From Escherichia coli (GTDB lineage Bacteria; Pseudomonadota; Gammaproteobacteria; Enterobacterales; Enterobacteriaceae), in assembly GCF_003334305.1 (NCBI RefSeq), contig NZ_QOWS01000049.1: DNA of 6,386 bases; one strand, 5' to 3'. The position numbers and the translations under genes were made by a program. Position 1 is the stretch's first letter; each line of letters starts with the position of its first letter. Positions 63 to 6,386 of this stretch are shown in pieces. The notes beneath the pieces were generated by a model, which worked only from the letters and a program-made list of their open reading frames with translations, made no database searches and was not told where the DNA came from.

Positions 63-77
63 GTTGGAGTCATTACC
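1..77 (+). mobile_element. IS1 insertion sequence, right end only (element continues upstream of the window)
   Basis: Nt 1-77 match, from my memory of IS1, the last ~77 bp of the element in canonical orientation (AATCGGTGGAGCTGCATGACAAAGTCATCGGGCATTATCTGAACATAAAACACTATCAATAAGTTGGAGTCATTACC), ending with the right terminal inverted repeat at 55-77. Not verified by search. Confidence 0.85.
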
Positions 78-735
78 GTGCACGGTAACGGGCCATATCA
101 ATGAGCAGTTCCTCTCCAATTTTATTTGCCCCTAGAGAGCGGCGAGTTTTCTTCACTTCAATGACAATCTTCTCTTTCTTCAGAAGAAAATCCTGTCTGG
201 ATGATGAACCTGCGAAGCTAGGTGAATTTTCTTCAGGTCTGACATCATTAAAATGCAGCAGCAGAAGAGCATGAACAAGATCCTGTACATCATACTCGTC
301 ATTAATTTCAAGCGGCGTTCTGTCATTGTATCGTTGCTTTAATTGACGACAAAAAGCTGGAAATTTATTGAGTATATTTATAATCAAATCCAGTTCGGCA
401 TGTTTTGTTGCTATAGTCGATGCCGTGCCGGAGTAAGTTAAATCGTCTCTGGCTGCATCAAAAATAGGTTTGTAATGTCTAACCAATCCCTGATAATTAC
501 TAGACCAAGCAATCCTTTGTGTATCATTAAAATCTTTGTAGTAATCAGATTCCTTTCCATAACTGTCTTCAAGTAACTTTTTTGCTCTTGCAATCCAGTT
601 ATTACCTTTAGCCGAATCAATATATTCCTGGCTTCTGTGACTAAATGCACTTGTTCCCATATATTTTGTCGACATGACAGAATTGTACTCTTGTTCAAGC
701 ACTTCAAATCTTTCAGCTAAGGTCTTCTTCGTCAT
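73..735 (-). CDS. Hypothetical protein with a C-terminal PD-(D/E)xK-like nuclease motif; 3' end created by the IS1 junction, so probably truncated
   Basis: ORF track frame 73..747 (-). Position 747 is a TTG; the first ATG is at 735 (MTKKTLAERFE...), giving about 220 aa. The C-terminal region reads EYDVQDLVHALLLLHF ... SSSRQDFLLKKEKIVIEVKK: an acidic helix, a D in a hydrophobic strand, then E-V-K 11 residues later, the arrangement expected for a PD-(D/E)xK core (motif-level inference only). The last sense codon and the TAA stop (73-75) overlap the IS1 terminus, which ends at 77. Confidence 0.55.
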   Translation of the reverse strand: MTKKTLAERFEVLEQEYNSVMSTKYMGTSAFSHRSQEYIDSAKGNNWIARAKKLLEDSYGKESDYYKDFNDTQRIAWSSNYQGLVRHYKPIFDAARDDLTYSGTASTIATKHAELDLIINILNKFPAFCRQLKQRYNDRTPLEINDEYDVQDLVHALLLLHFNDVRPEENSPSFAGSSSRQDFLLKKEKIVIEVKKTRRSLGANKIGEELLIDMARYRAR

Positions 736-811
736 AGCGCAATCCAAATTATATGCTAATAATACCTGTGAATTTTAATATTCTACCATATCTGGCTTTC
801 TTCCGTTCACA

Positions 812-2258: not shown

Positions 2259-2284
2259 CTGGACATTCAGGTAAAAAAGTCCAA
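2259..2284. repeat. Dyad-symmetric motif copy 3 (CTGGACATTCAGGTAAAAAAGTCCAA), fused to the terminator stem
   Basis: TGGAC (2260-2264) / GTCCA (2279-2283). The right half-site is also the 5' arm of the terminator hairpin at 2278-2304. Confidence 0.55.
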
Positions 2285-2358
2285 CTGGTGAGGTTGGGCT
2301 TTTTGGCTTTCCGGTTCTGTTGGTGGCTATGACCGGAGAAAATTGCTCTACACCTAAC
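2273..2358 (-). ncRNA. Candidate small RNA, orphan paralog of the antisense RNA at 4727..4814
   Basis: Homologous to 4727-4814 along its length: the same terminator architecture, the same internal hairpin (TCCGGT ... ACCGGA), and a conserved -10 (TAAAAT on the minus strand, plus-strand 2365-2370). The predicted 5' seed is different (GUAGAGCAAUUUUCUCC versus GUAGAGUGACUUCCUCC). No adjacent toxin gene, and no target found in the window. Confidence 0.4.
2278..2304. terminator. Bidirectional rho-independent terminator (A-tract / 8-bp stem / 7-nt loop / T-tract)
   Basis: AGTCCAAC (2278-2285) pairs with GTTGGGCT (2293-2300), with one G-U pair. The loop is TGGTGAG. A5 lies upstream and T5 downstream, so it reads as stem plus U-tract on both strands. 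It serves the 1772..2221 ORF on the plus strand and the sRNA candidate on the minus strand. Confidence 0.6.
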
Positions 2359-2837: not shown

Positions 2838-4340
2838 ATGAAGAAATTTTATCAATTTAGGGATGAACAGCGAAAGGAGCTTGAACAACATGATTTTTAT
2901 AGTTTGATTTCTTCAGATTGTATAGCGTTGAAAGACAAACTATTATTTGCTCCTGTTATGGCTCATTTCATAATGAACTTCAGAGACATGAATAAATGGG
3001 TTATCAGGTTTGATAACAATGATAATGAATATAAATCTGTTATAAACGGTGGAACAATCGAGGATGAAACACATTCAAGATTGTTTCTGGAAGACTGGAG
3101 GAAACTATATATAGATGACAAACTTAACTGGAAAGCAAGTGATGTTATATACTGGTTGTTTATTAGTCGAGAAATGGAGTGTTTCCGAAAATTTGGTATT
3201 GATTTTATGAGACTTTGTGTAGATGATGGAGGAGACCCAATACTTCGATATTCTCACTCCGAGTCAGGAGAAACTTGCGGTAATATATTCTTTTCAAGAA
3301 TTAGTCCTATTGCTGATCAAGTTGCCAATCATTTGGGAATATCACTCCGTTATTTTGGAACATTTCACCTTAATCTTGAAAATGGACATGTATGGAAGTC
3401 AGAAGGTGTTTTTGAAAATATAGAGTTGTCACCAGATTCTTATAAGAAAATGGCTACTCTATCAAAGAGAATGTTTGATATATTTGAAGGAATTCATGAC
3501 TCTTTTTATAATTACCTGTCCAGTTATGTTCTTAATGGAAGTCATCCGTCATTTTTTGAATCATTACCTGTAGGGAAAAATGTTGCACCTATATACCCTG
3601 AATTTGTGATAGAAAACAAAAGCCATAACGATGGTAGACATATTGAACATATAAACAATTACCTGGAAAAAATATCGAGTCATGAGTTCTTTAAATGGCT
3701 GGTTAACACCTCAATAGACCCTCAATTGAAATTGAAAAGTTTCATACCTCTTTGGATTGTTGATATTATGGGGTATAGAGATATTAATAAATATGTTTTT
3801 ACATATGAACAGCCTGAATCAGAAAGTGAAAAGATTATAAATGATTATGCATTACACTTGTCAGAGCATAGCCGTTTATTTTATCATGACTGGAAGTCAC
3901 TTCAACTTGATGATATGTTACGTTGGAGTGCCAGTGATACTCTTGAGTTTATTTTTCTTAATTCAGATATGGATATGCATAGAGAAAATATAGTTAAGTT
4001 TTCTTTGTTCGGATTAAAACACAGAGATCCTGTTATCAGGTTCTGGTTTATGATGATACTGGAGTTAAGTGGAAAAGAATTTTTCTCTCATGTTGGAGAT
4101 ATAGCTTTACAGGTGGAAAGTAAATATAATATTTATCTCCCATATTTATGTGGACGCCATGCAACAGAAAATGAGCATGAAGCATATAATAATATGTATG
4201 AGCATTTTATGGTAAAGGAACTTAGCCCTGAACAAAGTGATCTAATAATACAAATTACAGACATGGTTATGCGGTCATTATTGAATAATTTGGATATCTC
4301 ATATCGATATGTAGTAAATAATTTATTGGCAGCTCGTTAG
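2838..4340 (+). CDS. Hypothetical 500-aa protein made of two homologous ~220-aa halves; function unknown
   Basis: Long ORF with a strong AGGAG Shine-Dalgarno site, its own AT-rich promoter region and its own terminator. The two halves share ETHSRLFLEDWRKLYIDDKLNWKASD versus EHSRLFYHDWKSLQLDDMLRWSASD, FRDMNKWV versus YRDINKYV, and a later ELSP motif. No signal peptide or TM helix is apparent. Codon usage is strongly AT-biased compared with the flanking sequence. Confidence 0.8.
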   Translation: MKKFYQFRDEQRKELEQHDFYSLISSDCIALKDKLLFAPVMAHFIMNFRDMNKWVIRFDNNDNEYKSVINGGTIEDETHSRLFLEDWRKLYIDDKLNWKASDVIYWLFISREMECFRKFGIDFMRLCVDDGGDPILRYSHSESGETCGNIFFSRISPIADQVANHLGISLRYFGTFHLNLENGHVWKSEGVFENIELSPDSYKKMATLSKRMFDIFEGIHDSFYNYLSSYVLNGSHPSFFESLPVGKNVAPIYPEFVIENKSHNDGRHIEHINNYLEKISSHEFFKWLVNTSIDPQLKLKSFIPLWIVDIMGYRDINKYVFTYEQPESESEKIINDYALHLSEHSRLFYHDWKSLQLDDMLRWSASDTLEFIFLNSDMDMHRENIVKFSLFGLKHRDPVIRFWFMMILELSGKEFFSHVGDIALQVESKYNIYLPYLCGRHATENEHEAYNNMYEHFMVKELSPEQSDLIIQITDMVMRSLLNNLDISYRYVVNNLLAAR

Positions 4341-4504: not shown

Positions 4505-4645
4505 CACGTAGCGCATCGCCGCTACTGCATCCATCAAAAAAAATGACAGCTTTTTTAATCATCTTGTGTTACTCAACTTACTGAAAAATGTGATTTATGA
4601 AAATGCCGCCGTCGGCATCAAGCAGTTGGCCAGCGCAACCGGCTG
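4505..4645. repeat. Repeat block U, copy A (about 140-bp core; homologous to 5765-5905)
   Basis: Shared anchors, by eye about 75% identity: TTCACGTAGCG, TACTG-ATCCATCAA, AATGAC, CTACTGAAAAAT, GGC-ACAGCATC. The reading frames are not conserved between the two copies, so it is probably non-coding. Confidence 0.55.
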
Positions 4646-4726
4646 CATCGACCGCAACAAAAAAACTGAAAGAGAAAGCCCCTCAAATGAGGGAGAAAAA
4701 AAGGAAGTGCAGTCAACGAGAGGCGT

Positions 4727-4814
4727 AAAAAACCCGACTGGTGAGGTCGGGTTTTAATACGGTTCCGGTTCTGAGTTGGTGGCTCTGACCGGAGGAAGTC
4801 ACTCTACACCTAAC
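4727..4814 (-). ncRNA. Candidate antisense small RNA (type I antitoxin-like), divergent from the 31-aa peptide gene
   Basis: Minus-strand promoter: TTGCAA (4844-4849), 17-bp spacer, TAAAAT (plus-strand 4821-4826). The predicted start is near 4814. The terminator is stem CCCGAC (4733-4738) / GTCGGG (4746-4751) with loop TGGTGAG and a U6 run on the minus strand. The first 24 nt (complement of 4791-4814) pair with plus-strand 5026-5049 in the peptide mRNA leader (23 Watson-Crick pairs plus one G-U). Confidence 0.5.
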
Positions 4815-4820
4815 GTTTAC

Positions 4821-4849
4821 ATTTTATGCACTCAGCCGCAGTATTGCAA
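4821..4849 (-). promoter_or_regulatory. Candidate sigma70 promoter of the antisense RNA (-35 TTGCAA, -10 TAAAAT, 17-bp spacer)
   Basis: Read on the minus strand: TTGCAA, then TACTGCGGCTGAGTGCA, then TAAAAT. Confidence 0.45.
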
Positions 4850-4903
4850 CTAACTGTGGTTAAGGCACCACATTTAGTTGTGTATCGTGGGTTTTATATA
4901 CCT

Positions 4904-4909
4904 TATAAT
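4904..4909 (+). promoter_or_regulatory. Candidate -10 (TATAAT) for the peptide mRNA, implying a leader of about 210 nt
   Basis: Consensus TATAAT at 4904-4909 with an AT-rich upstream region; the -35 is poor. It is divergent from the antisense RNA promoter, about 55 bp away. Confidence 0.3.
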
Positions 4910-5025
4910 CATGAAGTTAGCCGTGTGGTGTGGCTTCTTCCTCTGCCCTTCCCGTTTATGCAGGTATGAACGATTTTAAAGTCCTGGCTGAACAAACAGG
5001 TGGTGCTGTGTTTAGTGCTCTGGCA

Positions 5026-5049
5026 GGAGGAAGTCACTCTGCACCTAAC
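5026..5049 (+). promoter_or_regulatory. Predicted antisense RNA target site in the peptide mRNA leader
   Basis: GGAGGAAGTCACTCTGCACCTAAC (5026-5049) differs at one position (A to G) from plus-strand 4791-4814, so it is complementary to the 5' end of the minus-strand RNA with one G-U wobble. Confidence 0.5.
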
Positions 5050-5102
5050 AATGCGAGAGAACCGTTGTGACAGGCAGTGTAAGAGCAAGCAACGGTGATT
5101 TC

Positions 5103-5119
5103 CTCCAGTTTTACTGGAG
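5103..5119 (+). promoter_or_regulatory. Hairpin sequestering the Shine-Dalgarno sequence of the peptide gene
   Basis: CTCCAG (5103-5108), loop TTTTA, CTGGAG (5114-5119). The SD GGAG (5116-5119) is inside the 3' arm. TTCCTCC at 5100-5106 could alternatively pair with GGAGGAA at 5026-5032. Confidence 0.4.
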
Positions 5120-5125
5120 AAACGG

Positions 5126-5221
5126 ATGATTAATCTGTTAATCATCGTTCTCAGGGCTGTGGTCGCCGTTGCAAACGCGCTGATTGCAATTCTGGAACTG
5201 ATTCGCCAGTTCATCGACTGA
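5126..5221 (+). CDS. 31-aa hydrophobic peptide, type I toxin-like (MINLLIIVLRAVVAVANALIAILELIRQFID)
   Basis: ATG at 5126 with GGAG 6 nt upstream. An in-frame stop lies upstream at 5096-5098, so this is the first possible start. The peptide has one predicted TM helix and a charged C-terminus. A near-identical paralog is at 6044..6139. It is not in the ORF track, which lists only the antisense frame 4909..5214. Confidence 0.6.
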   Translation: MINLLIIVLRAVVAVANALIAILELIRQFID

Positions 5222-5446
5222 TGACAGCGGAAACGTAACTAAGGACAGGAAGTGAACCGCTTCCTGCCCTTTAACATACTGTGATATTTTTCAAAAAAAC
5301 TCACCAATATTCTCCTCGGCAGAAATGACATAACTCACTGTAAAATAACAAATCATCTAAACGCCAGCTTTGTATTGAGCGCGTTGGCCAACGCCTTTAT
5401 CAGCTGCGACCGCACCAGATAATTTGAATAAGATTTCCCGCATCAC

Positions 5447-5472
5447 CTGGACATACAGGTTATTCTGTCCAT
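5447..5472. repeat. Dyad-symmetric motif copy 4 (CTGGACATACAGGTTATTCTGTCCAT)
   Basis: TGGACA (5449-5454) / TGTCCA (5466-5471), with an inner dyad ACCTG ... CAGGT. It lies in the spacer between the two peptide units. Confidence 0.6.
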
Positions 5473-5993: not shown

Positions 5994-6032
5994 AGCCCAA
6001 CTTTATGGGGGTCAGTTCAGTGAGGTTGGGCT
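5994..6032. terminator. Hairpin homologous to the sRNA terminators (8-bp stem, enlarged 23-nt loop), directly upstream of the second peptide gene
   Basis: AGCCCAAC (5994-6001) pairs perfectly with GTTGGGCT (6025-6032). The loop ends in TCAGTGAG, compared with TGGTGAG in the other copies. On the plus strand, A4 lies upstream and no U tract follows. Confidence 0.45.
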
Positions 6033-6043
6033 AAGAGAAACGA

Positions 6044-6139
6044 ATGATTAACCTGTTAATCATCATTCTCAGGGATGTGGTCGCCGTTGCAAACGCGCGG
6101 ATTGCAGTTCTGGAACTGATTCGCCAGTTCATCGTTTGA
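6044..6139 (+). CDS. Second copy of the 31-aa peptide (MINLLIIILRDVVAVANARIAVLELIRQFIV), possibly degenerate
   Basis: ATG at 6044 with a weaker ribosome-binding site (AAGAG). It differs from copy 1 at 7 nt (V8I, A11D, L19R, I22V, D31V, one synonymous), and two of these put charged residues in the hydrophobic core. It lacks the sRNA, promoter and leader block present upstream of copy 1. Confidence 0.45.
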   Translation: MINLLIIILRDVVAVANARIAVLELIRQFIV

Positions 6140-6309
6140 TGACAGCGGAAACGTAACTCAGGACAGGAAGTTCCAAATAGCTCCCAGCCAGCATATGTAA
6201 TTTTCAAAGGGGCAGTTGTTAACTCTGTAATAACGCCATGTAAAGTATTCCTGCCCCCTCCATGATCCTCCATAGTATTTCTTGAGTTAATTTTCAAAAA
6301 GCTTCTGAT

Positions 6310-6386
6310 GGTGATGCTGCCAACTTACTGATTTAGTGTATGATGGTGTTTTTGAGGTGCTCCAGTGGCTTCTGTTTCTATCAGCT
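6310..6386 (+). mobile_element. IS1 insertion sequence, left end (element continues beyond the window)
   Basis: GGTGATGCTGCCAACTTACTGATTTAGTGTATGATGGTGTTTTTGAGGTGCTCCAGTGGCTTCTGTTTCTATCAGCT matches the IS1 left inverted repeat and the insA 5' region as I recall them. It is in the same orientation as the IS1 fragment at 1-77. Confidence 0.9.
6365..6386 (+). CDS. insA: IS1 InsA, N-terminal fragment (GTG start; continues beyond the window)
   Basis: GTG GCT TCT GTT TCT ATC AGC translates to (M)ASVSIS, the InsA N-terminus as I recall it. Confidence 0.7.

Follow-up and report, generated by a model that had tools for sequence, protein, structure and literature searches.

A probable dqlB/agrB (DinQ-like) type I toxin-antitoxin module on an IS1-bounded plasmid segment of Escherichia coli

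Introduction

Does a short open reading frame (ORF) facing a divergently encoded small RNA (sRNA) on an Escherichia coli contig make up a toxin-antitoxin system, and if so, is that system new? The question is raised by a 6,386-nt stretch of contig NZ_QOWS01000049.1 (assembly GCF_003334305.1), here called the window, for which an earlier note, made from the letters alone, had proposed a hidden type I toxin-antitoxin-like module at positions 4727 to 5221: a 31-amino-acid (aa) membrane peptide on the plus strand and a minus-strand sRNA complementary to the leader of the peptide mRNA. Our analyses make it very likely that this module belongs to the known dqlB/agrB (DinQ-like) family of type I toxin-antitoxin systems. 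The copy is an ordinary one that the databases already contain, and it is not new; the results suggest only two mildly new points, namely, apparent classes of pairing specificity and a possible cross-neutralization with modules of IncX4 and IncX5 plasmids.

Much is known about this family. The chromosomal dinQ/agrA/agrB locus of E. coli K-12 was characterized by Weel-Sneve et al. in 2013 (PMC3567139): the toxin gene is repressed by LexA, it is translated only from an mRNA processed at +44, it is repressed by the sRNA AgrB and not by AgrA, and its product causes membrane depolarization and loss of ATP. Kristiansen et al. in 2016 (PMC5066626) described four elements in the dinQ 5′ untranslated region (UTR) whose mutually exclusive helices close or open the Shine-Dalgarno (SD) sequence, with AgrB binding both re-closing the SD and triggering cleavage by RNase III; the same study defined dqlA and dqlB as dinQ-like (dql) genes, located on plasmids and chromosomes of enterobacteria. 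For DqlB/AgrB of pOXA-48, toxicity, rescue through agrB, and action as an addiction module were reported in 2025, along with homologues in 3,310 plasmids (PMC12365149); in the same year, DqlB/AgrB of the IncX3 plasmid pOXA-484 was reported to be toxic and plasmid stabilizing (PMC12317039).

Results and Discussion

Identity and distribution of the module

Curated models recovered both partners. The 31-aa peptide encoded on the plus strand at 5126 to 5221 (MINLLIIVLRAVVAVANALIAILELIRQFID) scored 72.4 bits on NCBIfam NF041473, “DinQ-like type I toxin DqlB,” an equivalog model with a cutoff of 35 bits, with residues 1 to 31 of 31 covered. The minus-strand RNA from 4813 to 4725 was a full-length match to the Rfam AgrB model RF02891 (64 bits; gathering score, 40 bits). 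With both models passed, the proposed architecture, a type I system in which a divergent, trans-acting sRNA targets a long structured leader, was borne out, as were the positions originally assigned to the ORF, to its GGAG SD sequence (5116 to 5119, 6 nt 5′ of the ATG), and to the hairpin that encloses the SD (5103 to 5119, CTCCAG-TTTTA-CTGGAG; pair probability of ~0.9 in the full-length fold).

The module is not hidden, as the earlier note had it. RefSeq/PGAP calls dqlB (WP_000609147.1) at exactly this ORF on plasmid pECOS88 of E. coli S88, and calls dqlB on many plasmids besides, while the sRNA exceeds the gathering score of its Rfam model. The expectation that standard annotation would miss both genes was thus correct for agrB, which has no feature in the RefSeq record, and wrong for dqlB. 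Nor does the implied novelty survive, the family having been described in 2016 (PMC5066626) and validated in 2025 (PMC12365149, PMC12317039). The suggested kinship with DinQ/Zor-class peptides held in its first half only: the peptide is DinQ-like (NF041473), and no Zor/Orz family was returned in the NCBIfam or Rfam scans. The NCBIfam scan of the peptide gave DqlB and DinQ only, and the Rfam scan of the window at E ≤ 1 gave AgrB plus two chance-level hits only. The systems tisB/istR-1, zorO/orzO, and shoB/ohsC resemble the module in having a small hydrophobic toxin, a 5′ UTR that is long and structured and needs processing before translation, and a divergent pairing sRNA (PMC5397157, PMC3567139); no sequence relationship to them was found, their families being absent from the Rfam scan of the window and the NCBIfam scan of the peptide.

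Judged by sequence identity, the host replicon is a ColV-type IncF virulence plasmid such as pECOS88. The window was 99.9% identical to pECOS88 and to many other large E. coli/ColV plasmids, carried by isolates from humans and poultry. In pECOS88 it corresponds to approximately positions 21,029 to 27,414, with an IS1 copy on each side and sopAB adjoining, and each end of the window is itself IS1: one IS1A transposase coding sequence (CDS) ends at ~62 (so that IS1 occupies at least 1 to 62), and the next IS1A CDS begins at ~6365, within an IS1 stretch from 6309 to 6386 that starts with what we take to be the IS1 left-end repeat (GGTGATGCTGCCAACTTACTGATTTAGTG). Related sequence was present in 1,247 of 5,426 complete E. 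coli genomes, and 1,415 of the 1,440 places that carried it were on plasmids. At least 5,000 plasmid records in PLSDB matched, and those among the matches listed were mostly conjugative.

With the dqlB/agrB family of plasmids, the window module shares the peptide family, a divergent AgrB that pairs through its 5′ end with the 5′ UTR, the SD hairpin, and the plasmid location. It differs from the family in its IncF/ColV replicon, a setting in which these modules are reported to be uncommon (4.2% of IncF; PMC12365149). Coordinates of the module and of its relatives within the window are collected in Table 1.

Table 1. Positions of the dqlB/agrB module and of related sequences in the window
Feature	Positions	Strand	Basis or remark
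AgrB antitoxin sRNA, ~88 to 90 nt	4725-4814	-	RF02891, 64 bits; fold
AgrB promoter, TTGCAA, 17 bp, TAAAAT	4821-4849	-	Sigma-70 scan
dqlB -10 box, TATAAT	4904-4909	+	Alignment to dinQ promoter
Predicted primary dqlB mRNA (210-nt 5′ UTR, ORF, terminator hairpin)	4916-5275	+	Whole-length homology to K-12 dinQ
Sequence element 1 (lock)	4933-4947	+	Minimum free energy partners 5022-5034 and 5045-5049
AgrB target	5002-5049	+	Core 5026-5049; extended match 5002-5049
Sequence element 2, GGCAGGAGGAAGU	5022-5034	+	Inside AgrB target
Sequence element 3, anti-SD, UUCCUCCAG	5100-5108	+	Alternative partners: element 2 or SD
Sequence element 4, 3′ arm of SD hairpin (including GGAG, 5116-5119)	5114-5119	+	Fold
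dqlB, 31-aa single-helix membrane toxin DqlB	5126-5221	+	NF041473, 72.4 bits; RefSeq WP_000609147.1
dqlB 3′ stem-loop/terminator, AAGGACAGGAAG...CUUCCUGCCCUUU	5240-5271	+	Terminator scan; fold
Orphan AgrB-like sRNA remnant	2271-2358	-	Rfam AgrB, 46 bits; repeat families D2, D5; alignment A2
Second dqlB copy	6045-6140 (within 6035-6171)	+	Repeat D1; alignment A2; NF041473, 58.2 bits; RefSeq dqlB

The two transcripts

The earlier claim of an ~88-nt minus-strand RNA delimited by a TTGCAA-17 bp-TAAAAT promoter and a hairpin with a U6 terminator was confirmed by the scan (for the promoter), by folding, and by Rfam. That promoter was the sole sigma-70-like site given by the scan within 4600 to 5400, and it aligns with the promoter region of K-12 agrA/agrB; transcription of AgrB would start at G4814 or U4813. 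The RNA folds into an ~20-nt single-stranded 5′ tail, a stem-loop, and a terminator stem (4727 to 4755) followed by U6. This terminator was not listed by the promoter/terminator scan, presumably because its stem reaches into the A/U run; it is evident in the fold and in the Rfam alignment alike. A 55-aa hypothetical protein in RefSeq (WP_000638861.1; 4590 to 4757, plus strand) is convergent with AgrB and overlaps its terminator (4725 to 4757); it is probably a spurious call.

For dqlB, a (G)TATAAT sequence followed by GTTAG was found in all six plasmid rows that cover this region (alignment A3), K-12 having TATGAT. By homology with the +1 of dinQ, the start of transcription would be G4916 (GTTAGC).

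The toxin was compared with those of 12 further plasmid loci (IncX4, X5, X3, X1, IncI, IncK, pO113, pESI, IncL/M, and IncFII/R). All 13 plasmid peptides were 31 aa long and nearly identical, with the DNA only 72 to 88% identical, and synonymous changes in dqlB exceeded nonsynonymous ones across 12 homologues (e.g., 15 versus 6). The 101-aa frame antisense to dqlB (4909 to 5214, minus strand), although it is the longest ORF of the interval, can be rejected with near certainty as a real gene to which the small ORF and the sRNA would be incidental, for it was open at ≥100 aa in only 4 of the 13 homologous loci and reduced to 44 to 74 aa in the other 9, the plus-strand 31-aa ORF being intact in all 13, it has no RefSeq annotation, and the curated DqlB and AgrB models account fully for the region; the earlier note, too, had called it spurious. 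Variability by codon position did not separate dqlB from the antisense frame because the third positions of the two frames coincide.

Pairing of AgrB with the dqlB leader

The 24-nt complementarity on which the original proposal turned was present, with one qualification: the 5′-terminal 24 nt of AgrB form 23 Watson-Crick pairs with 5026 to 5049 and one G-U wobble, at 5041. Looser complementarity extends over 5002 to 5049 (39 of 48 positions). Chance complementarity was ruled out, as none of 200 dinucleotide shuffles of the window held a second copy of the 24-mer at ≤3 mismatches and the duplex energy of AgrB and the leader lay at z = -8.4 relative to shuffled sRNAs. The perfect helix is shorter than that reported for pOXA-48 (24 versus 35 nt).

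Among the 12 comparison loci, 9 carried an AgrB above the Rfam gathering score; no Rfam AgrB hit was obtained in the three IncL/M or IncFII/IncR loci with a pOXA-48-type peptide, and a direct repeat was present at the expected spacing in the IncL/M (pOXA-48-type) loci. We computed duplexes between sRNA 5′ ends and leaders of ten plasmid loci and K-12. Cognate duplexes ranged from -56 to -72 kcal/mol and duplexes between different pairing groups from approximately -31 to -64 kcal/mol, with slight overlap of the two ranges, and sRNA and leader co-varied in cognate groups. The same method ranked K-12 AgrB (-66.6 kcal/mol, 23-bp run) over AgrA (-51.1 kcal/mol, 9-bp run) on the dinQ leader, in agreement with the published genetics (PMC3567139). 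Window AgrB paired with its own leader at -69 kcal/mol (24-bp run).

A predicted leader switch

The dqlB mRNA was folded with ViennaRNA in three states, and the predicted folds reproduce the published dinQ switch. In the full-length mRNA (4916 to 5275), 4916 to 4947 paired with 5022 to 5049, i.e., element 1 together with the 5′-terminal GUUAG (4916 to 4920) paired with element 2 and the AgrB site, and the SD hairpin had a probability of ~0.9. In the processed mRNA (4974 to 5275), 5026 to 5032 paired instead with the anti-SD at 5100 to 5106 (P of ~0.9), and the probability of the SD hairpin fell to ~0.1; the helix between elements 2 and 3 reached its probability of ~0.9 in this form only. When the AgrB site of the processed mRNA was blocked, the anti-SD was released and the SD hairpin returned (0.73 to 1.0). 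The four leader elements of dinQ, with their mutually exclusive pairings 1:2, 2:3, and 3:4, were thus found computationally in dqlB. The processed end was placed near 4974 as the likely counterpart of the +44 processing site of dinQ.

Comparison of homologues is consistent with these structures. Over an 11-sequence alignment, the full-length structure was 88% paired, against 37 to 50% in slid controls, a comparison that is partly circular and somewhat flatters the structures, which were predicted from the window sequence itself. In that alignment, 30 pairs were changed on both sides, including 4 of the 7 pairs of the SD hairpin and 6 of the 13 terminator pairs (helix 14). Helix 1, which holds the pairing of element 1, was 83% paired across homologues with 5 pairs changed on both sides; the alternative 2:3 helix was 90% paired, and the pairings of element 3 are backed by covariation (helix 9 and the analysis of the alternative helix).

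The likely scheme, the one already described for dinQ, has three steps. First, the primary dqlB mRNA, starting at ~4916, would be untranslatable: 4916 to 4947 would pair with 5022 to 5049 and the anti-SD at 5103 to 5108 with the SD at 5114 to 5119, hiding both the AgrB site and the ribosome-binding site. Second, removal of ~58 nt from the 5′ end would leave a new end near 4974, upon which 5026 to 5032 would capture the anti-SD, the SD would open, and translation would become possible. Third, the free 5′ tail of AgrB would pair with 5026 to 5049, the anti-SD would be released, and the SD hairpin would re-close; by analogy with dinQ, the AgrB-mRNA duplex would then be a substrate for RNase III. 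DqlB, by homology with DinQ and the tested DqlB peptides, would be an inner-membrane peptide, toxic when made, and AgrB, expressed from its own promoter, would serve as the antitoxin. The outcome for the plasmid would be postsegregational killing, in which plasmid loss ends the supply of antitoxin while the toxin mRNA persists. The part played here by RNase III and the relative stabilities of the two RNAs are inferred, and the toxicity of the window copy and its plasmid stabilization are expected by analogy.

Plasmid addiction or SOS response

Kinship with dinQ raises the question of whether the module might be an SOS-induced stress toxin like the chromosomal gene, repressed by LexA and induced by DNA damage, rather than a plasmid addiction system. 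Homology to dinQ/agrB is clear: the sRNA, both promoters, the leader, the ORF, and the terminator of K-12 all align with the window, the predicted four-element leader switch and the sRNA fold (Rfam AgrB model) are the same, and in both places one well-matched sRNA is accompanied by a degenerate paralogue. In addition, a CTG-N10-CAG sequence in the dqlB leader (CTGGCTGAACAAACAG; 4984 to 4999, plus strand) is, as its reverse complement, a predicted weak LexA site upstream of dqlB on pTF2, with a heterology index of 11.64 (PMC12211044). Yet the LexA operator that lies over the -10 box of dinQ in K-12 (CTGTATGATTATCCAG) is replaced in the window by CCTTATAATCATGAAG, which has neither the CTG nor the CAG half-site. 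The leader motif, the sole LexA-like one near the locus, is found ~70 nt into the transcript. At the same place the RNA forms a conserved stem-loop (helix 4, 100% paired in the homologues), and RNA structure alone may account for the palindrome; one-mismatch matches to it were no commoner than expected by chance. DqlB went undetected in the SOS proteomics of the pTF2 study (PMC12211044), and plasmid homologues act as addiction modules (PMC12365149, PMC12317039). We consider SOS control improbable and have rejected it.

The missing promoter box also indicates that the window locus is not dinQ itself, from which it differs in other ways. Its peptide carries a 7-residue insertion relative to DinQ and reached only 25.1 bits on the DinQ model NF041472, below the cutoff of 30, with residues 18 to 30 alone matched. 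The functional sRNA is the promoter-proximal one in the window, whereas the proximal one in K-12 is the nonfunctional AgrA, and the locus is on a plasmid, whereas dinQ/agrA/agrB is chromosomal. Given the peptide insertion, a LexA operator that is not conserved, and a sole motif that lies inside the leader on an RNA stem, the module is best read as a plasmid addiction system and not as an SOS gene.

Decayed relatives and the state of the main copy

Two relatives of the module lie in the same 6.4 kb, which sets the window apart from the tested dqlB/agrB loci. One is an orphan AgrB-like sequence (2271 to 2358). Its resemblance to the main copy ends immediately past the -10 box, which leaves it with no -35, it has no neighboring dql gene, and it paired with the dqlB leader more weakly than AgrB did (-48 kcal/mol, 13-bp run). 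In these respects it is like AgrA of K-12. A third dql gene beside it (2358 to 2840) was sought and rejected, the alignment showing no homology past the -10 box, and the idea that the orphan is the cognate of another plasmid group's leader was dropped when no sampled leader paired with it better than approximately -50 kcal/mol.

The second relative is another dqlB (6045 to 6140), 93% identical to the main copy over 137 nt. It is without leader, promoter, AgrB site, and SD hairpin, it is fused to a remnant of an agrB terminator (5994 to 6030), and it has the charged substitutions A11D and L19R in the helix. It is probably a dead copy. No target for either sRNA was found near it (best energies, -26 and -23 kcal/mol).

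These neighbors invite the view that the main copy, too, is an inactive relic, a decaying locus in an IS1-bounded mosaic with neither toxin nor antitoxin activity; the flanking IS1 elements and the weak -35 of dqlB fit such a view. The parts of the main copy are nevertheless all intact, from the sRNA promoter and terminator through the four leader elements and the SD to the 31-aa ORF and its terminator. Its 24-nt helix equals or beats those of most other compared plasmid loci, its peptide is only 2 residues from the IncX3-type DqlB, and the 801-bp region is ≥99% identical in 97 E. coli replicon records. We judge a relic to be very improbable.

Several points nonetheless weigh against an active addiction module of the dqlB/agrB family at this locus, besides the circularity of the slid controls. 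The functional experiments come from homologues on other plasmids and reach the pECOS88-type copy by analogy only. Of those homologues, the pOXA-48-type peptide (locus L013) is identical to window DqlB at 25 of 31 residues and thus differs at 6, and the IncX3 peptide (locus L005), a possible equivalent of the pOXA-484 peptide, is identical at 29 and differs at 2. The dqlB promoter has a consensus -10 and no recognizable -35, and the promoter scan did not report it. A literature search on DinQ-like toxins and ColV plasmids found no paper that links the two. Finally, given decayed relatives inside an IS1-bounded mosaic, some decay of the window copy is conceivable.

Two kinds of repeats occur at or near the orphan AgrB-like sequence. 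A 24-nt palindromic repeat, TGGACA...GTCCA, occurs in four copies (813 to 836, 1148 to 1171, 2260 to 2283, and 5448 to 5471; 75 to 83% identity), one of which overlaps the 3′ end of the orphan and some of which lie inside a longer 39-nt repeat (CACCTGGACA...); these copies could be module boundaries or recombination sites. Directly past the end of the orphan's homology, at 2394 to 2429, four copies of a 9-nt unit (CGCCTTTAA) follow one another in perfect tandem.

Pairing specificity and its possible consequences

In the duplex comparison, the 5′ end of window AgrB (4770 to 4814) paired as well with the IncX4 and IncX5 leaders (loci L003 and L004) as with its own, in duplexes of -70 and -71 kcal/mol that both contained a 24-bp run. 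Its duplexes with the leaders of IncX3/X1, IncI, IncK, IncL/M, and K-12 dinQ reached -33 to -51 kcal/mol, and that with the pO113 leader was intermediate (-64 kcal/mol, 19-bp run). We tentatively suggest, as a speculation that the modeled energies make possible though not likely, that AgrB/dqlB modules fall into discrete classes of pairing specificity and that window AgrB would neutralize the dqlB mRNAs of coresident IncX4 and IncX5 plasmids no less efficiently than its own. If so, one plasmid may cancel another plasmid's addiction or make that addiction dependent, and such cross talk might have left behind the orphan AgrB-like RNA at 2271 to 2358 or might involve it weakly.

As a discovery, the module contributes little: publications already cover the family, the mechanism, and the part it plays in plasmid maintenance, and the toxin gene is routinely annotated. 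Some practical value lies in the observation that pECOS88-type ColV/IncF plasmids, which occur in avian pathogenic and neonatal-meningitis E. coli, harbor a DqlB/AgrB addiction module that looks intact and whose antitoxin RNA RefSeq does not yet annotate, which bears on plasmid-curing strategies and on possible cross talk among coresident plasmids with related modules.

Other genes of the window

Two further loci of the window appear worth recording. AetD is a heme-oxygenase-like diiron enzyme of aetokthonotoxin biosynthesis. A 500-aa “hypothetical protein” encoded at 2838 to 4340 (plus strand) is built of two halves with 32% mutual identity, and its N-terminal half matched AetD at E = 8e-18 (PDB 8ji2, 8zvg, and 8twn); searches with PADLOC, NCBIfam, and Pfam gave no match for this ORF or for the 159-aa and 149-aa ORFs of the window. 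Such a tandem AetD-like enzyme, carried by a virulence plasmid of E. coli, may merit a separate look. At 73 to 747 (minus strand) lies a truncated PD-(D/E)XK nuclease gene, a RefSeq pseudogene cut off beside IS1; it matched PADLOC “Aga_Helical-REase” models (E = 4e-23) and may be the remnant of a defense gene.

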